Shown here piece by piece: positions 10,257-34,600 of a stretch of DNA of 64,000 nucleotides. A program made the translations under genes and the position numbers. The DNA is from Vermamoeba vermiformis (taxonomy: Eukaryota). The stretch lies in contig JBEWZL010000236.1 of the NCBI GenBank assembly GCA_045837725.1, positions 62,001-126,000 on the forward strand, in the 5' to 3' direction. The notes beneath the pieces are model-generated. The model ran no database searches. It had not been told where the DNA came from and worked only from the letters and a program-made list of their open reading frames with translations. Each line of letters starts with the position of its first letter. The first letter of the stretch is position 1.

Positions 10257-10669
10257 GTTTGTTACAAAGGACGCTAAATGTCCTTTTGATTCCTCTCAGA
10301 ATTTTGTGGTTGCGGTCCACAACGGCAGAGAAAAAACAACGAAACTTGTTTGGTCGAAAGACCTCTATGAAACTTCATCTCCTTTTAGTAGCATAATGGT
10401 ATACTGGATTGAGGTAATCTACTATGCATTGCACGGATTCCTTTCGTTCCCGCTTGCTGCGTATATTAAAATGCCGAAAGTATATTTAAATGTAAATTAG
10501 CTGTCATAAATCTACAAAATTAATATAAGAGTTGGTGGTCCCTAAAAATTTTCGATTTACCAAAACTAAAAATCGCACGCTGCGGGTTGGTCAACTGTCA
10601 CGTGCGTGGGCTGTCCCTCTCGGTTGCTGCAATATTTAATTTACCATCTGTAGAAATAGGAAAACTATA

Positions 10670-12523
10670 ATGGAGTTTGAAAGTGCCGGAAACGGCGAAC
10701 CATTCGACAATTTTTTGTTAGATGCAGAAAACGCTAACCTCAGTCACGAAGAAATAACAACCTCACCAGAAAATAATTATACAAATGCATATTCTGAATC
10801 AAATTCAAATTATTTCAGTTCGGATCTGGATTCTGGCAGCCCGAACGCGGATGATGGAAATTTGCTCCACGTGACTTTGCGACACAAGCCCAAGCAAGTA
10901 CTTTAATTATGGCACTTAGTTTTCCTACCAAAATTGAAGAGTGCTAATTTGTAATTACTCGCGCTGATTTCTCTAAATTTAGACATGCGCGCGGTGAGTT
11001 TGAAACAATCGTTGCGGATCAAATGATCCGAGTCACTTCTGGACGAGGCAAACACATGCAATTGGTTGTCTCTAGCGGCGTCGAATGTGATTGGAAGACA
11101 TTTAAAGTGAGTTATGTCTCGGACATCGTCAGCCAGAGCGCGCAGGGCGACGACTTTGCGATCAAATTGGAAAAGATGTACGCCACTCAAATAGGACAGG
11201 GCAGCGGTATGTACTCGATAGAGAATTGGACCAATCAGAACTAACTTTCAATGAATCGCAGCACTCAAATACCAGCTCACAGCCGACATTCAATTGATTG
11301 CGCGCAGTAAAGTTAACAATCGCATGCACTTGTTAGTGGAGCTCGCGAGCATTGACGGCATGCTGCTTGATGCGCGCAGTGTCTCGTTCAAAACGAGTGA
11401 GAACAGCTCGTCAAAACGCGAACCACAGACGAAGAAGAGGAAGTTGAATGCGCAAGGAGACAGCGTGAGCATCAACACGACGAGTTCACCGACTGTGGTG
11501 GATGTCAGTCACATTCACAATGTGGAAAGCTTGGTGCCCCAGTCCACTTCCAACACTTACAATTATCAGTATTACAATCACAACAACATCAACATGGTGC
11601 CCGCGAACAGTGCTCAGGCAGTGGGCGATAATAACATGGCCATTGTCATGCCCTCGTCCTTAGATGTGCACGGTGTAGTGCGGGCACGAGGATTTTATCA
11701 GTTCTCAGATCTGCGGCTCAAAACCAATGTTGAAGAGATTGTGGACGCGCTGCAAATGATCACGCGACTGAATGGCGTGCGGTACCAGTGGCGACCGAAC
11801 ATACCTCAGACTGTAAGTCAGACTCGACAAAGTACCTTGTCTTCGTGTATTAATTGGACCACAGAACTATCGAGGGCCCGGTGAAAAAGTCATTGGACTC
11901 ATCGCGCAAGAAGTGCAGCGCGTGTTCCCCGAGCTCGTGCGACAAGAGCGCGATGGCTACCTGTCAGTCAATTACACCGATCTGATCCCTGTGATGATTG
12001 AGGCCATGAAAGAACTCGCGCGCAATCAGCAAGACACACAAGGTGAATTGCTGGCCCTGCGCATGACGATGGAAGATGTGGTCGTGCATCTCTCGGTCAC
12101 GAAGAAGGGCAAAGACTTTGAGGAAGAAGAGGAGCGCATGACACTAGCGCGCCTCAACAAGTACAAGCGAATGCGCGACCAAGTGACCTACGAGCTCAAA
12201 GAGAAGCAGCACGTGCTCGCCACGGTGGATCAGTTCACTGAACGGCTGAAACTGATCGAGTCGCAGACCACAGCGATTGAAGACACTGTTAAGAAAGGAG
12301 GTCGCAAACGATGCAATATGTCGCGCAGAATGTTTAGACTGTTGCTCGCGATCACTATAACTGTATCAGCGACTGTAGTAGTGGTCATTGGTAAGGCTCA
12401 ATTAGTATTTGTACTGGTGTCTGATTCACTGACAACTCTGTCGCAGTTTTATCGATAGTGTTGGGTAATACTATAGCAAAACAAAATCAAACTCCTTCGA
12501 CCCCAGTGTCAACTCCGTTTTGA
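10670..12523 (+). CDS. MYRF-like protein: unrecognised N-terminal domain + NLS + peptidase S74/ICA autocleavage domain + coiled coil + C-terminal TM helix (533 aa; exons 10670-10893, 10983-11206, 11262-11812, 11865-12390, 12447-12523)
   Basis: GFYQF-SDLRLK-TNV...LNGVRYQW...IGLIAQEVQRVFPELV...LSVNYTDLIPVMIEAMKEL is an S74 chaperone with the Ser/Lys dyad. Also KKRKL and TM LLLAITITVSATVVVVIVLSIVLG. Intron 1 requires a GC donor. Confidence 0.85.
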
Positions 12524-12602: not shown

Positions 12603-15600
12603 ATGGATAATAGGGATAATGCGATTAGAAAAAGACAGAAACTAGCACATCCAACGGATAGGTAAGTTCTAGTCTCCTTGTTTATTCGCTTGATAAATTA
12701 AAAATAATTACTGATTAGTGGATTAGTCTGGAATTGAATGTTAGTGTATTGGAAAATTACTGAGTAAATTATTAAAAATACAGGGAGCCCCAAGCAAAAA
12801 CATTGTGCGATCTATTTGCGCAATCGTTCAAACTGTATCCCTCACGTGTGGCCATTGAATACGTAGAACACGACGCCAATGTACAACAAAGTAAGCATTA
12901 TTGAACCTCTCTCGCTAGATCTCACTCCTCCAGTTACCAGTACGTCCCTCACATACGCGCAGTTGATGAGTCACGTGCGCGACATTAGTGCCGCACTCAC
13001 GCAACAATACAACGTGCAGCGCGGTCACGTGATCGGTGTATTGGGCCCTGCCACGCCCGACACAGTAGCGGCACTGCTCGCAGTCATGTGCAGTGGCGCA
13101 GTGTACGCACCACTCGAGGTGAACAATTCTCGTGCTCCTGATCTGCAAATGACATGTGTCATCGGAACAACGGAACAATTGTCGCAAGCTGACCAGTTGA
13201 TTGGCAGCACACCACGCCTGACACTGCCTGTGACACGTGACAGCTCCAGCAATGACACGTCAGTGACGGGCGATATTAATGACGCGTATGTCATGTGGAC
13301 GAGTGGCACGACGAGCTCTAAGCCCACTCGCGTCACTGTCCCGCACTCGGCTGTGTTGCCTAATTTGGTATGTGAGTTCATGTACCCTCACTGCAAGTAC
13401 TGACGTGATGCAGCTCTCGTTGAGTGAGGCACTTCAAATAGATGGCGATACTAGGCCATTGAGAACTATATTGGTGGCACCAATCACCTTCGATCCATCG
13501 ATCATTGATCTATTTTTAGCTCTCGGCTATGGTGGCACAGTTGTCGTGCCCTATCCCGCTGTCAAATTGATTCCCAAGCTGTTCATCGACGCTGTGCACT
13601 CACATCACGTGACCACACTGCAATGTACGTGTCAGCTTGCTATTGGTCTGTCTAACAATATGCACAGGCACGCCTTCATTCATTCGTCGCATGCCACCTG
13701 ATCTTCGCGCAACATTGTTTTCAGTGTCGTCATTGCGTCACGTGATCTTGGGTGGCGAACAGTTCCCCACCGTCAGTGAACTCAAACAATGGCTGGTATG
13801 CGTCCCTTACTGATGTGATTGCCATTAACCTCTTGCCAGGGCACTGCAAACACGTCAGAGCTGCAAATATTCAACATATACGGCATCACCGAGGTCTCAG
13901 TCTGGGCCACACTCGAGCCAATCAATGTGCCTCGTCTGCTGTCGCGCAAGTCTGAGCAATACGTGCCACCCCTCGGCACTCCAATGCGCGACACACACCT
14001 CGCACTGCGCACCGATGACAATCAGCTTGTACCTCTAGCGCCGTACCTCCAACAGCGAGCACTCAAGCGCATGAACAGCCCTATTGTCGAGCACGTGACG
14101 CACGATCAAGTGCTCAGTGGTCAGCTCTTGATTGGCAGTCAGCGCAGACAATGTCGATTGAACGACGAGACTCAGCCGCAAGAGTGGCGCGAGACAGGTG
14201 ACGTGGTGCGTGTAGTGCGCGGCAAGGTGTATTATATGGGCCGAGCGCAGGACTGTTTGGTCAAAGTTAGCGGCAAAAGAATCAACTTGTTGGAGATCAG
14301 CAACACACTCGCGTCATGCGCTGAGGTCACTGAGGCTGTGTAGGTGCCTTCTGTTCTATATTTAGCAACACTAACACGCGCAGTGTCCTTGTACTGGACC
14401 AGAGTGGCCTGGTCTGCTTTGTGGTGTCACGTGTCACTGACGCTGTCACAGCTGTCAATCAATTCGCACGTCAACACCTGCCTCCCTTCATGCGTCCCAA
14501 TCACGTGATTGTACTCGAGACCATGCCCACCAACCTCAATGGCAAGATTGATAAGCACGCATTGCGCGACATATTCAGTGCGCGCGTGCACTTGTCGAGC
14601 ACTAGCACTACTGACGGCACTCAGCTCGTTGATGTTATGCTGCAGCTGTGGCGGAGTGCAGTGCCGGGACTCGAAGAGAAGAGTTATGAACACCTCAGGA
14701 CACAACACATTGTAGCTCTGGGTGCCTCGTCCATTGACGTGGTGGAGTGCGCGAACAAGTTGTGTGCACGACTAGGTGCGTAGTGAATGCAAGTGTGTCT
14801 GTCAACTGATGACTCAATCACTCACAGGATTTGACGCGCGAGTGAATGGTGCCGAGCTGAAACAACAGTAAGTGTGACACATGCACCTCATGATCTGACG
14901 AGTGAATAATTGTCATTGAACAGAGTGCACGACGCACTGCTGCATCACAAGTTTGACGAGGTGATTGAACTGCTGCTGACTCTCACAACGAACACGCCAA
15001 GTCCATCGAGTGTCGAGCACGGTGACATCTCGCCCCTCACTTCGTCGCTGCTTGGTACACCAGTGCGAGCAACGAGTCGATGCAACAATGTCGTGACATT
15101 CATGCCAGTCACTCAGCACTCACACCGCGCAGCAATCAATACAGGGCCCGGCACTCATGCAGCACTCAAGTGGAAGCAGTGGCTGATCAAGTGCGTAGAT
15201 GCTAGTCCACTGGTCATTGAGACCACGCAGCAGAAGTGTGTTGTGATTGGCTCGCACAGTGGTCACGTGACATGCATGGAATTGCAGTCGGGCGAGTTCA
15301 TATGGCGCACTCAACTGCCTGATCGTGTCGAGTCATCAGCTACGTTAATTAAAGTGCGAAGTCAGTTCTACATCTGCGTGGGTAAGTGTACTAATGAGCA
15401 CCAATACGGCTTGCTGACACATCGTAGGATGTTACGATCACTGCGTCTATTTTCTGGACGTCAGTCACGGCACTGTAACGTGGTCATATGACCTCCAAGG
15501 CCAAGTCAAATCCAGTGCTGCACAAGACCCGAGCACGGAACTGGTGTGGGTAAGTAGGCACTATTCTACCGCACTCTGCCTCGCATTGACCACGTCAGAT

Positions 15601-20675: not shown

Positions 20676-23600
20676 TTAATCCATGTCGACGTCGTCGGGA
20701 TTGAACGAGTCGACAGAAGTGGTGCTCTTCTGATCCTCAGCCACTTCTTCTTCGGGCTCAGGCTCTTCACTGCGCGGCGTCTCTTGTGGCGAGTCATTGT
20801 GCTCAGAGTGACCGCCTTCAGCTTGTTCGCGAGCCAGTTCTTCGGCCAAGAGTCGCTCCTCCTCTTCGAGCAAGCGATCCTCTTCCTCTTTCTTTTTGCG
20901 CTCCTCTTCTTCGAGCAGACGTCGTTCCTCTTCGAGTAGACGTTCTTCTTCGAGGCGATGGGCATCCTCTTCTTCACGTCTCAAGCGCTCCTCCTCTTCG
21001 AGCAGACGGCGCTCTTCTTCAAGTAAGCGCTCTTCCTCTTCTTTGCGCTTGCGTTCGTCCTCTTCCAACAACAGGCGCTCTTCTTCGAGCAATTTCTCTT
21101 CCTCTTCTTTGCGCTTGCGCTCCTCTTCTTCGAGCAACCGTTGCTCCTCGGCAAGCAACCGATCCTCTTCTTCTTTCTTTTTGCGCTCTTCCTCTTCCAG
21201 AATACGTTGTTCTTCAGCCAACAAGCGTTCTTCTTCGAGTCGCTTGGCTTCTTCAGCTAACAAGCGATCTTCTTCCTCTTTTTTCTTGCGCTCTTCTTCG
21301 GCAGCAAGTTTATCAGCCTCCTCTTTCTTCTTGCGCTCCTCTTCTTCGGCAGCGAGTTTATCAGCTTCCTCCTTTTGTTTTTGAGCTTCCTCAGCGGCCA
21401 ACTTGTCCGCCTCTTCTTTTTTCTTTCGTTCTTCTTCTTCAGCTAACAAGCGATCTTCTTCCTCTTTCTTTTTGCGCTCTTCCTCTTCGACCGCAAGCTT
21501 GTCGGTCTCTTCTTTCTTCTTGCGCTCCTCCTCTTTCTTCTTGCGCTCTTCCTCTTCGGCTGCAAGTTTATCGGCTTCCTCTTTTTGTTTTTGAGCCTCT
21601 TCGGCGGCAAGCTTGTCAGCCTCCTCTTTCTTCTTGGCTTCTTCAGCGGCCAATTGATCTGCTTCCTCTTTTTTCTTGCGCTCTGCTTCCTCAGCTGCAA
21701 TCTTGTCAGCTTCTTCTTTCTTCTTGGCTTCTTCAGCCAAACGCGCTTCTTCTTCTTCTTTCTTTTTGGCCTCTTCTTCTTTACGTTGTTGAGCGCGAAG
21801 TTTCTTAAGCTGTGTCTTGCTCATGGGTTTGGCAGGCTCAGCGCTCTTAGTCGCTTCTTCTTGTTTCTTCTTCTCTTCTTCAGCCGCAATGCGCTCAGCC
21901 TCCTCTTTCTTTTTGCGCTCTTCCTCTTCGGCTGCAAGCTTGTCGGCTTCTTCCTTCTGCCTTTGAGCTTCTTCAGCAGCCAATTTATCAGCCTCCTCTT
22001 TCTTCTTGCGCTCCTCTTCTTCGGCAGCGAGTTTATCGGCTTCTTCTTTTTGTTTTTGAGCCTCTTCAGCAGCAAGCTTGTCAGCCTCCTCTTTCTTCTT
22101 GCGTTCTTCCTCTTCGGCCGCAAGCTTGTTGGCCTCTTCTTCTTTCTTTTTGGCCTCCTCTTCGGCTAACAAGCGATCTTCTTCCTCTTTCTTTTTGCGC
22201 TCTTCCTCTTCGACCGCAAGCTTGTCGGCTTGTTCCTTCTGCTTTTGAGCTTCTTCAGCGGCCAATTTGTCAGCCTCTTCTTTCTTTTGGCGCTCTTCCT
22301 CTTCAAGCAAACGTCGCTCTTCTTCAAGCAATCTCTCCTCTTCAAGTTTCTTCTGACGTTCCTCTTCTTCGAGGAGACGACGTTCCTCTTCGAGAAGACG
22401 TTCTTCTTCGAGACGTTTTTCTTCCTCTTCACGTCTCAAGCGCTCCTCCTCTTCGAGCAGAAGGCGCTCTTCTTCAAGCAAGCGCTCTTCCTCTTCTTTG
22501 CGCTTGCGTTCCTCTTCTTCAAAGAGTCTACGCTCTTCTTCGAGCAATCGGTCCTCTTCCTCTTTGCGCTTGCGCTCCTCTTCTTCCAAGAGGCGTTGTT
22601 CATCATCAACCGTGTGATCCGCTTCCTCTTTCTTTTTGCGCGCTTCTTCCTCGCGCTTGAGGCGGTCTTCTTCTTCCAATTGATGCATAATCTCTTCGTC
22701 ATCCAGATCGTCGACATCTTTCTTTGTGCCGTTCTCTTTGGCGTTATTTCTAGCCTCTTCTTCTTCGAGTTCGCGCAGTAACTCCTCATCGGTGGGCTCC
22801 TCTTGAGGGCGCTTTCTTTGTGCCTCCATGCGAGCCAAGGCCTCTTCCTCTTCACGAATAAGGCGCTCCTCTTCCTCGCGCCACTTTTCTGCCTCAAGGC
22901 GCTCGCGTTCACGACGTTGAGCCTCTTGTCTCTCACGCTCGGCAGCAAGACGCATTTCTTCTTCTTCACGCAACAATTGTTCTTCAATCTCTTCGTCGGT
23001 TAACTCGCGCTGTCTAATTGGAGCGACTACTTGGACAGGTTCTGTGAAGAGTTAGCCGTGTTGTATTAGAATGCAAGAGCTAAATACCTGACAAATCGTT
23101 TTCGCCTTCAGTATCGTGTTGGCGAGCACGAAGACCAGTGCCGGCAGTTGTCGGCTTCAACGTTGGCTTGTCTGCCTTGCCGAAGGTACCAGTGGCGTCA
23201 ATGAAAGCACGGCGAGGGCCAGGCTTCCAAGGATTAGCGGCCACTTGTTGCGTCATTTGCTCGATCACAGCTTCGTCCCAGGTGCGTTGATAATCAAAAG
23301 TCATTTGTTCACGCACGCGAGAGTGACGAATCTTGTCCTCTTCAGCGTCTTTCTCTTCACGAGCCAAACGCTCTTCATATCGATCGCGCAAGCGAGTCAA
23401 TCGCTCGCCAATCAATTTCTCCTCGCGCTGTTGTCGCTTGTGATTCAAATCGTCCCAGCGATTCATTCTGACGCGCAATCGACGCTCCATCTCTTCGGTA
23501 CGTCGCTTCATGCGCTCTTCAAATCGTTCTTTCTGTTTAATATACCCAGATTAGTATACAATCGTCAGCGACCAATTATACGCGTACTAATTGTTGAGTC

Positions 23601-31640: not shown

Positions 31641-34600
31641 ATGGACCCAACTCAAGCAATTGCTTGGCACGATGACAATATAGAGGACCATGAGTCAAAC
31701 GTCGAGGAGATCCCGCAGGTGCGTACAGTTTCAATATTATAGGCTGGTTAAATTATTGGATATTATTTTTGCTAATATATATTCCTTCGTCGCATACCAT
31801 ATTTCGCATTTAAATATTTTTCTAATTTTTAATTAGATTTTAGTCTCGCTGACAGTCAAAGATAAAGACAAGGTATTTGAGCTGCACGAAGGAACGCACT
31901 CAATAGGCAGAACAGCCGACAATAAAATAGTCTTGTCTTACGCATCAATTTCCAAAAAACACGCCTTGCTCGGTAAGTTCGTGCTCGCAGTGCTGCATCG
32001 CTGACCGTGCACATCGATCAGAGGTGTCCAAATCGAGCAACAACACGGTGTACTGCTTCATCACTGACTGCGGCAGTCTCAACAAAACACGGCTGTGTCG
32101 CAGTGACGATGAGAAGGGCATTGTACTCACGCCTAACACGCGCTACGAGGTACAGTGATGCGCAGGAGGAGTAGCCAGTGTCTGACAGTAGTATATTTGC
32201 AGATATTGCCTGGCTCCAGACTCGTCTTTGGCGATGTCACGTGTCAGCTGACTGATCACACGGCTGAAAAAGAAGTGGCACCTGTCACCACTGAAGAACA
32301 ACGCGTGCCTGACACGAAGAGCGAGAGCGTTGTATTCAAAGTAGTGCATTTGCTATGCGAGTGTGTGTGGCTGTTGATTAACGTGTTGAACAGAAGCCAG
32401 CGAGTCTCGAGGCCACACAGGCCTACGAAGTCACCGATGAAGAGCTGTTGAATGATCTCATGCACGAGTCGCACGATGTCGTGCCCAAACGTCATGCAAG
32501 CAAGTGGACAGAACACGCCACTCAGCCATACGATGAGAGTGAGAGCACCACACTCGGATCCATGAACAACACACTCGGCAATGCATCGCTCAAATCAGAC
32601 TCGAGCACACTGTGGTTCAAGAAAGACAAGCCGAACAAGGACGCACTGCCGAGCACACAAGCTTATGATGAAGAGTCTACCCAAGGACCTGAGAGAGCTG
32701 AGATCACAGTGATTGTCACTGCTCCCACTCAAGCGTATGAAGAACCCGCAGAGGACGCTGGGCCCAAAGATGCAGCGGCAACACAGGCGTATGATGAGCC
32801 GTCGAGTGAGGTGAAGCACAAGGACATCAGTGCCACACTGGCCTATGACGAGGAGAGTGATGTGCCCATGAAGGACGTAAATGCCACACTGGCCTATGAA
32901 GAGCCCTCTAGTCCCATTAAAGCTGCAGACAACAACGCGACTCAAGCCTATGAAGAGCCAGCGAGCCCTGTCAAAGCTGCAGACAACAACGCTACACAGG
33001 CTTACGAAGAACCAGCGAGTCCGATGAAAACAGTGGACAACAACGCCACACAGGCTTATGAAGAACCAGCGAGTCCCCCCAAGTTGATTGAGGTGAATGC
33101 CACGCTGGCGTATGAAGAGGACAAGTCCGCAGAAGACAATAACAACAATGCCACGCAAGCTTATGAAGAGCCGTCCAGTCCGAAACTTGCGGACAACAAC
33201 AACAATAACGCTACTCAAGCTTATGAAGAGCCGTCCAGTCCGAAACTTACAGACAACAACAACAACAATAACGCTACTCAAGCCTATGAGGAGCCCGTCC
33301 AACCAGCAGACACTCACAACAATGCTACTCAAGCCTACGAAGAACCAGCGAGCCCCGTCAAAGCGGTGGACCACAATGCTACTCAAGCCTATGACGAGCC
33401 AGAGCACAATCTACCGGTGACACCCAGCAAGACCACTAAAGTTGTCACGTTTGCTGAAGTGAGTGTCACACAAGTGTACGAAGAGTCGGCGAGTCCAATG
33501 CGCGAAGATATGGACACCAACAATGCCACACTGCCGATCATTGAGCAGCACAGTCCACCTGAAATAGACCACAATGCCACACTGCCCATTGCAGAGCACG
33601 ACAGTCCTGAGTCAAATGAGCGGCACACAGACAAGATGGAGATTGACAGACCAGAGACCACTCACAAACGCGATGATGAAGAGCCATCGAGTCTGTTCCA
33701 CGACAGTCATCCGCGCGACAGACATGCGCAGCCTGTCAATCCTGAGACACGTCACTCTGACAGCAGTGACACGCAGGGCCCAGCACAGAGTAAAGTGACA
33801 GTGAGCGCTAGCAGCAAAATTACAACTTCTATTGTAGAGAGCATGCTAGACAATGAAGCGACACTGATGATAGTAGACTCGACTGAGATCAAGAACAACG
33901 AGAGCTTGGAGGCCACACTGCGATTGCCCTCGACTCCTCCCCTGCATGCATCAGCTGACTCGCTCTCTGATGAGGCAGTTGAGTCCATGCCTTCCGATCT
34001 GTGGTTCATCAAGCACAAAGGTATGAATGCTATTCCTATCCGAGCTCTTGCTCAATTGTGTTGCCAGATAAAGCATCAGAGGAGGCAGCAGACCAATCAC
34101 CCGCCTCAGAGCACACGAACACCCGTGCTGAACTGGCTCCTTCATCGCACAGCAACGAACAAAACAAGTTGCCAGCACAGGAACACAACACCGATCAGCA
34201 CACTGAGAGCCAAGCAGCTGTGTCGGAGAAAGAGTCGCACGACAACAATACCAACACTACAACAGAACCACCACCCAAATCCAGAACTAAAGGCCGCACC
34301 ACTCTGCGCAAGTCACTATCTCCGACACGTGCACGAACTAAGATTGAACCCGAAGAAGGCATGCAAGAGGATTCAACGGCCAATACGGACAAGTACGCAC
34401 TTGCATTGATCGAAAGAGTAACTAATGCTGTTGCAGGACCCGCGGCACTGAAGACAACGTCAAGACTGAGGCCCAGCAGAGCATTGCCACAGAGACGAAG
34501 AGCATACGAGGACGTCGCAAGAGCAAGAGCGAAGTGAGCGAGTCACCGCACGAACACACCGCTGAGTCGCACAACTCGAACAAGCGCACTACTCGTCGCA

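Follow-up and report, generated by a model that had tools for sequence, protein, structure and literature searches.

An Ig-like domain family of Amoebozoa joined to the self-cleaving release module of MYRF: a candidate membrane-tethered regulator in Vermamoeba vermiformis

Here we describe a gene of five exons and four short introns at positions 10670-12523 (+ strand) of a 64,000-nucleotide stretch of Vermamoeba vermiformis DNA (assembly GCA_045837725.1, contig JBEWZL010000236.1, positions 62,001 to 126,000; hereafter the window), whose product joins the same release module as the membrane-bound regulators MYRF and MrfA to a different cargo domain. The protein consists, in order, of an acidic tail, an all-beta domain of ~125-130 amino acids (the N-domain), the basic cluster KKRKL, a low-complexity linker, a Peptidase_S74/ICA domain, a charged helical stretch and one C-terminal transmembrane (TM) helix. 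The N-domain belongs to a family of its own, most informative members of which carry S74 downstream, and we somewhat favor reading the whole chain as a self-cleaving, membrane-tethered regulator with a separate cargo domain.

The spliced protein, all of it encoded on the + strand, lacks a hydrophobic N-terminus and opens with a tail in which residues 1-66 hold 14 D/E and no K/R, for a net charge of -14. The N-domain occupies residues ~64-197 (10859..11404, spliced over introns 1 and 2), as placed by the family hidden Markov model (HMM) and an AlphaFold (AF2) model of the homologue P0003, and is followed by KKRKL, a putative nuclear localization signal (NLS) read directly from the sequence at residues 207-211 (11432..11446). 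The ICA/Peptidase_S74 domain, with a conserved segment upstream of it, spans residues ~280-359 (11651..11942, with intron 3 inside), and contains the SDLRLK motif (11705..11722) in which alignment identifies Ser298 (11705-11707) and Lys303 (11720-11722) as the predicted catalytic dyad, with cleavage expected just before Ser298. Residues 361-485 are highly charged (22 K/R and 23 D/E), and the single TM helix at residues ~492-515 (12339..12466, spliced) lies between KKGGRKRCNMSRR and an 18-residue tail; the most hydrophobic 19-mer starts at residue 492 (mean Kyte-Doolittle value 2.87), with a basic cluster N-terminal to the helix. An AF2 monomer model of full-length P0003 has a similar layout, with the N-domain at a predicted local distance difference test score (pLDDT) above 92, predicted disorder at 1-115 and 246-304, an ICA region of moderate confidence (pLDDT 60-75), one long helix at 368-409 that is the counterpart of the 361-485 stretch, and a TM helix at 414-437. 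A first-pass annotation of this DNA, made from the sequence alone, had described a 533-residue protein of MYRF-like layout with an acidic tail, a beta domain, an NLS, an S74 domain with an intact Ser/Lys dyad, a helix and a TM segment, and had placed the serine codon at 11705, residue ~298; the length, the layout and the position of Ser298 all agree with our analysis.

The identity of the release domain is well supported. Pfam family PF13884 matches the exon translations on both sides of intron 3, with 33.1 bits (E 7e-8) in exon 3 and 22.1 bits (E 1.9e-4) in exon 4, against a cut-off of 22, and no other Pfam family, the Ndt80/PhoG and MRF C-terminal domains included, is credible at E<=1 in any exon translation. 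The S, D, R and K of the SDxRxK motif are invariant across a 31-protein full-length alignment of the family. When the family ICA profile was compared with PDB sequences, the best match was the distal subunit of a phage long tail fibre (6f45, E 1.4e-7, 33.9 bits), and the MYRF ICA chain 7dc3 was also found (E 4.2e-4, 22.4 bits), with SDlRLK aligned over ADLRAK and a conserved L.V.G.V segment upstream of the dyad. According to Li et al., the MYRF catalytic dyad is S578/K583, conserved from phage to eukaryotes, and cleavage depends on trimerization (PMC3742443); Senoo et al. describe the same processing for MrfA (PMC3828593). ICA-mediated cleavage of the window protein is, in our view, quite probable.

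The N-domain, in turn, defines a large family. A word-based search with exon 3 returned four proteins (P0001-P0004), and a search limited to the N-domain of P0003 brought in P0005 and two isoforms from Phalansterium. P0001 (98% identity) and P0002 (82%) are close relatives called as truncated open reading frames (ORFs), and P0003 is a full-length protein of 440 amino acids with the same N-domain, NLS, S74 domain and TM helix. We combined the N-domains of the relatives with the window's two exon pieces in a family profile, which matched, among 1.84 billion representative proteins, at least 207 protein clusters at E<=1e-3, 104 of them at E<=1e-10; a profile search confined to longer proteins (630-2000 amino acids) gave 3 proteins. 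Conversely, the window's spliced protein matches a 47-sequence family HMM from which the window was excluded with 74.1 bits (E 9e-16 for a library of 1.84e9). Nine N-domain proteins carry organism names, from the seven genera Phalansterium, Soliformovum, Protostelium, Heterostelium, Dracoamoeba, Luapeleamoeba and Copromyxa, and all of these organism-named members are Amoebozoa (Evosea, Discosea and Tubulinea). The first-pass annotation had suspected a separate family and had suggested a search across Amoebozoa; the number of clusters, and the presence of S74 downstream in most informative members, bear out the separate family.

In most informative members the N-domain is joined to the release module. 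We applied family-specific HMMs to 150 listed matches, counting as informative those with at least 250 residues after the N-domain (n=46), and found S74 downstream in 41 of the 46. Among these 41 proteins, 37 have the SDx[RK]xK motif, 26 have a basic cluster between the two domains, and 31 have a TM-like segment after S74; in the 31-protein alignment a KKRK-type cluster lies at the same place, and K254 (P0003 numbering) is nearly invariant. A Pfam scan of 62 of the 150 matches, chosen among the longer ones, placed PF13884 downstream of the N-domain in 42 (four of them with C2 as well, and one with Fascin) and no family at all in the remaining 20. The four C2-bearing proteins (P0038, from Protostelium nocturnum, P0056, P0063 and P0071) form a sub-family in which the N-domain and S74 are followed by a hydrophobic segment of ~27-33 residues, the C2 domain and a final TM helix.

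The N-domain also occurs without the module. The 831-residue Heterostelium album protein PPL_11119 (P0049), annotated as 'hypothetical protein', is rich in Q, N and S and has neither S74 nor a hydrophobic segment or TM helix, its N-domain being broken by a low-complexity insert of ~150 residues. Other free forms, rich in Ser/Pro or Ala/Gly and likewise without S74, are P0046 (from Copromyxa), P0058, P0062, P0090, P0132 and P0141; in the free forms the top hydrophobic 19-mer falls below 1.5. Since the N-domain is found both with S74 and a TM helix and in soluble proteins, it therefore exists in tethered and free forms, a situation that parallels that of the Ndt80 domain, tethered in MYRF and soluble in Ndt80 itself. 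In a FastTree tree of 121 N-domain segments (120 matches and the window, 33 of 154 inputs having been dropped for an incomplete domain, and support values being left aside), the window falls among the S74-bearing proteins P0102, P0097, P0139 and P0113, and five long members without S74 are scattered over at least three places.

A separate observation concerns P0004, a 380-residue amoebozoan protein from Cavostelium apophysatum (EukProt). Here a complete Peptidase_S74 domain (E 3e-19) and a KKRR cluster occur together with an unlike N-terminal region that has no Pfam match at E<=1, and a crude hydropathy scan of the protein found no TM segment. In this case the self-cleaving module may carry yet another, third type of cargo.

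What kind of domain is the N-domain? An AF2 model of the P0003 N-domain, computed from a 49-row alignment, has a pLDDT of 93.4, a predicted template modelling score (pTM) of 0.83, ~10 strands and no helices. Foldseek comparison of the model with the PDB gave generic Ig-like domains only (best E 3e-4, TM scores <0.6), and comparison with viral models (BFVD) likewise gave generic Ig-like matches only (TM scores <0.5). With nothing but generic structural matches, the predicted fold is that of an ordinary Ig-like beta-sandwich, for which no specific relative was identified. Thus, of what the first-pass annotation had envisaged, the failure to recognize Ndt80 stands, and its comparison by AlphaFold and Foldseek with Ig-fold factors yields an Ig-like monomer model with no particular Ig-fold family singled out, while the idea of a new fold is set aside.

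The Ndt80 question was approached at several levels. The Ndt80/PhoG family PF05224 has no match at E<=1 on the window exon translations or on P0001-P0004, and none of the 62 scanned family members has any Pfam family over the N-domain at E<=1e-4, PF05224, PF13887 and PF13888 included; here we assume that PF05224, an old family, is part of the scanned Pfam set, which appears older than release 38.1. The N-domain family profile matches no PDB chain at E<=10, and neither Ndt80 nor the MYRF DNA-binding domain is among the matches listed by Foldseek and by three VIA searches. According to PMC5473870, the MYRF DNA-binding domain adopts an s-type Ig fold, and its sequence identity to other Ig-fold factors is low. 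As this domain, too, is an Ig fold, a very distant kinship with the N-domain, judged by fold alone, may exist.

Embedding-based comparison in the ESM Atlas adds leads. For the P0003 N-domain, the top three clusters score 0.86-0.87 (166-170 of 256 features), with PF28397 in 50-60% of their members, and the next are LAG1-DNAbind (0.85), COE1_DBD (0.79) and SPT23_MGA2_DBD (0.77); all of these scores lie under the tool's 0.9 line. P0026, a more typical member of the family, gave one unnamed viral cluster (0.82) and no match to PF28397. Pfam 38.1 may already list the N-domain as PF28397 (DG1062_N), a family with no known function, and we treat this as a lead only; no paper on a protein named DG1062 was among the matches listed in the literature.

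The most conserved segments of the N-domain are basic and glycine-rich (HKPRGxKGxW, RVTKGKGKxLKL and F..HNNGK) and are located at strand ends and turns in the AF2 model. Near-invariant positions, in P0003 numbering, are H129, K130, P131, R132, G133, G136, W138, R148, V149, G154, K155 and G245. The window keeps H129, K130, P131, G136, R148, V149, G154 and K155, and is changed at four positions (R132K, G133H, W138F and G245S).

The gene model on which this protein rests sums to 1602 nt of exon, that is 533 codons and a stop, with no internal stop. The RNA evidence comes from runs of related organisms (X13-X15, mostly 90-95% identical, and X1, 95-99%), and establishes that the gene is transcribed and spliced in near relatives. 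Exon 1 (10670..10893, +) runs in an open frame from the ATG start through the acidic N-terminal region (residues 1-~63) to the first N-domain strand, LHVTLRHKPK. Intron 1 (10894..10982, +, 89 nt, GCAAGT...ATTTAG) is of the GC-AG class, its donor being AA followed by GCAAGT at 10894. Two RNA sources support this donor: reads of run X13 join '...CATAAGCCCAA', the relative's exon-1 end, straight to base 10983, and an X1 contig matches the window over 10660-10893, the similarity ending at 10893. Because the X13 junction, the end of the X1 match and the maintained frame all coincide, we place the donor at this GC and not at the nearby GT at 10898. Pairing GT 10898 with AG 10982 breaks the frame, and pairing it with AG 10998, which keeps the frame and would give 529 amino acids, is ruled out by the RNA loose ends that show the GC donor. 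Owing to the GC-AG intron, a gene finder restricted to GT donors would splice this gene wrongly or end it prematurely at TAA 10904.

Exon 2 (10983..11206, +) encodes the first half of the N-domain (HARGEFETIVADQMIRVTSGRGKHMQLVV...), supported by an X1 contig over 11061-11206 and by the six-frame ORF 10948-11241, which matches an N-domain HMM built without window rows at 43.5 bits (E 2.2e-12). The acceptor of intron 2 (11207..11261, +, 55 nt, GT-AG, phase 1) is marked by loose ends at 11262 that carry the relative's exon-2 end, in nine reads of X13, three of X14 and six of X15. Exon 3 (11262..11812, +) contains the second half of the N-domain, matched by its HMM, the NLS, the low-complexity linker and the first half of S74 (PF13884 positions 1-33). 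Intron 3 (11813..11864, +, 52 nt, GT-AG, phase 0) divides the PF13884 profile, and is supported as well by an X1 contig beginning at 11865 that bears 16 loose letters equal to 11797-11812 with 1 mismatch. Exon 4 (11865..12390, +) continues with the second half of S74 (PF13884 positions 40-58), the ~125-residue charged helical region recognized by composition, and the start of the TM helix. Intron 4 (12391..12446, +, 56 nt, GT-AG, phase 1) is placed by the relative P0002, whose C-terminus (...VVVLSIVLGNTIGK...) is contiguous across the site, and by the frame, which is kept; exon 5 (12447..12523, +), read from the sequence, supplies the end of the TM helix, the short C-terminal tail and the stop TGA at 12521-12523. 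Between the window and the relative's transcripts, 34 of 40 listed base differences fall at codon position 3 (binomial p 2e-11; 25 further differences lie outside the listed 40), as expected of a coding frame under constraint.

How might such a protein work? The lack of a signal peptide, the lone TM helix near the C-terminus and the basic cluster N-terminal to that helix lead us to expect a tail-anchored membrane protein with its N-terminus and bulk in the cytosol. The ICA domains and the helices that follow them would trimerize, and the Ser298/Lys303 dyad would then break the chain immediately N-terminal to Ser298, in the manner of MYRF/MrfA and phage tail fibres. The product would be a trimeric fragment of ~297 residues with three acidic tails, three Ig-like domains and three KKRKL signals. 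Its destination would be the nucleus, and its most probable role there that of a transcription regulator that binds DNA. Of these steps, a nuclear destination for the fragment seems likely, whereas for sequence-specific DNA binding by the N-domain we regard the chances as evenly balanced. Our most far-reaching proposal is tentative: that the Ig-like domain is the DNA-binding domain of a second family of ICA-released membrane-bound transcription factors, spread over three amoebozoan phyla, and that ICA plus TM forms a portable release cassette that has been lost repeatedly to leave free nuclear paralogues. If this were true, the cargoes of the cassette would be Ndt80 in MYRF/MrfA, the Ig-like domain here and possibly the N-terminal region of P0004.

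Several points weigh against this picture. Trimerization, cleavage, nuclear import and DNA binding are all steps that we infer, and the expression evidence comes from relatives (mostly at 90-99% identity) and not from the source organism itself; introns 1-3 are supported by RNA, and the relatives' RNA runs gave no coverage over intron 4. The window sits on a long branch of the N-domain tree, and its copy departs from the family in the conserved loops, with HKPKHARGEF for HKPRGSKGxW and SENSS for HNNGK, so that it may bind differently or weakly, if these loops contact the ligand. Finally, a C2 domain between two hydrophobic segments is hard to fit with a simple cytosol-facing topology, a difficulty that bears on the whole family.

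These considerations lend some substance to the strongest alternative, which we nonetheless think unlikely, namely that the protein is a self-cleaving anchored trimer but not a transcription factor. Its Ig-like domain would then bind protein, lipid or glycan, either in a cytosolic or nuclear scaffold or as the head of a shed surface or luminal fibre, and ICA would serve mainly for folding, trimerization and release. The top structural matches of the N-domain are indeed Ig domains of adhesion, receptor and carbohydrate type, the C2 sub-family hints at a biology linked to membranes or Ca2+, and DNA binding by the N-domain is something we infer. An extracellular N-terminus is improbable, however, since nothing like a signal peptide is seen at the N-terminus of the window protein, P0003, P0005, P0006, P0038, P0056, P0063 or P0071, and the only TM helix comes after several hundred residues. 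The conserved KKRK cluster between the N-domain and S74 and the acidic N-tail also argue against a role unrelated to transcription, as do the soluble paralogues, whose Ser/Pro- or Gln/Asn-rich composition is often seen in nuclear regulators.

For the reading that we prefer, a released regulator, the closest model is MYRF/MrfA. Both have a regulator-like tail, a beta-sandwich domain, an NLS, an ICA domain with a Ser-x4-Lys dyad, a helix and a single TM segment, and by analogy the window protein would be expected to share the trimerization-dependent self-cleavage that frees an N-terminal trimer, as described for MYRF and MrfA in PMC3742443 and PMC3828593. The differences are equally clear: the cargo of MYRF/MrfA is an Ndt80/PhoG domain, of which there is no detectable signature here; at 533 amino acids the window protein is much shorter; and with only 18 residues after its TM helix it has no luminal domain, unlike MYRF/MrfA. 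MYRF/MrfA also have MRF_C1 and MRF_C2, and the exon 4 translation here has no match at E<=1 to PF13887 or to PF13888, the latter of which we take to be MRF C-terminal domain 2. PF13887 is part of the 'MRF domain' as that term is used in PMC3828593. With neither an Ndt80 domain nor the MRF C-terminal domains, the protein does not qualify as a MYRF orthologue, despite its expected MYRF-like working.

An ordinary MYRF/MrfA orthologue, its Ndt80 domain diverged past easy recognition, is a distinctly improbable alternative. The order of parts is the same, and the s-type Ig fold of the MYRF DNA-binding domain, with its low identity to other Ig-fold factors, would leave room for such divergence (PMC5473870). 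But PF05224, PF13887 and PF13888 are absent at E<=1 from the exon translations and P0001-P0004 and at E<=1e-4 from the 62 scanned members, and a PDB search with the family profile gives no match at E<=10, even though MYRF and Ndt80 DNA-binding structures exist, as PMC5473870 attests. The N-domain has ~125 residues, against the 162 C-alpha atoms that are aligned between MyRF and Ndt80 in that account, and the family ICA profile scores 33.9 bits on the phage tail fibre and 22.4 on MYRF. Least credible of all is a viral insertion, a giant-virus or polinton-like-virus S74 fibre gene in place of a host regulator: S74 domains are reported to occur in fibre-like proteins of eukaryotic viruses (PMC12220804, PMC13620141), but this gene is interrupted by four spliceosomal introns, yields spliced transcripts in relatives, stands among cellular genes as a single copy of each domain in the 64-kb window, and belongs to a family found in transcriptomes of seven amoebozoan genera.

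Other groups of proteins deserve comparison. The chaperone domains of phage tail fibres and endosialidases (PF13884, 6f45) have the SDxRxK motif and the GLIAQEV block in common with the ICA of the N-domain family. In phages, however, ICA closes an extracellular fibre protein at its extreme C-terminus and is shed, whereas in the present gene, which is eukaryotic and has introns, it is followed by a helix and a membrane anchor. The Ig-fold ('p53-like') DNA-binding domains of STAT, Runt, velvet, EBF/COE, Rel/NFAT and Ndt80 belong to the same class of ~10-strand beta-sandwiches as the N-domain, but have no sequence-level relation to it by Pfam or PDB profile. CudA-like factors have a STAT-like DNA-binding domain. 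These factors (cdl) are reported to occur only in Amoebozoa (PMC8808424); they and the N-domain family are both Amoebozoa-restricted families of regulators or candidate regulators. A text search of the supplementary alignments of PMC8808424, in which gaps and line breaks could hide motifs, gave 0 occurrences of KPRG, GKGK, HNNGK and PPL_11119, and PPL_11119, DG1062 and S74 are absent from the three searchable supplementary files of the social-amoeba transcription-factor catalogue (PMC6873476).

As to novelty, no description of the N-domain/S74 family was found in the PMC articles that we searched. To our knowledge, MYRF/MrfA is the sole described eukaryotic transcription-factor family freed from the membrane by a phage-derived self-cleaving domain. 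In a 2026 survey of membrane-bound regulators, ICA is treated as the signature of MYRF, and only Ndt80-containing proteins are discussed in that connection (PMC13294678). A second, sizeable ICA-released family, if the proposal is right, would make this release mechanism modular and not a one-off, with free paralogues besides, and would provide amoebozoan gene regulation with an extra candidate DNA-binding domain. At 533 residues, the protein would also be a compact natural system in which to study the trigger of ICA cleavage, and PPL_11119 offers a free form of the N-domain in a genetically tractable group, the dictyostelids.

The surroundings of the gene are those of an ordinary cellular locus. 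Neighbouring ORFs correspond to a class II aminoacyl-tRNA synthetase, BTB and Kelch proteins, an ACSF4-like AMP-binding enzyme and an M14 carboxypeptidase, and an HMM search found no second copy of the N-domain or of S74 within the window. The downstream neighbour at 12867-15488 (+) has the look of an ACSF4-type beta-alanine-activating enzyme, with an AMP-binding piece (E 7e-14) and an ACSF4 beta-propeller (E 1e-20), and introns between them. Farther along, the + strand of 20985-22631 is made up of CT-rich tandem repeats (periods 45, 48, 66 and 93 nt), which probably explain the strong AT/GC skew at 20-24 kb; the minus strand of this segment would encode a Glu/Lys/Arg-rich, coiled-coil-like repetitive protein. 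Imperfect tandem repeats of 54 and 60 nt (2.7-3.6 copies, 80-87% identity) at 32883-33343, in a region of strong positive AT skew, are probably a repetitive coding segment.

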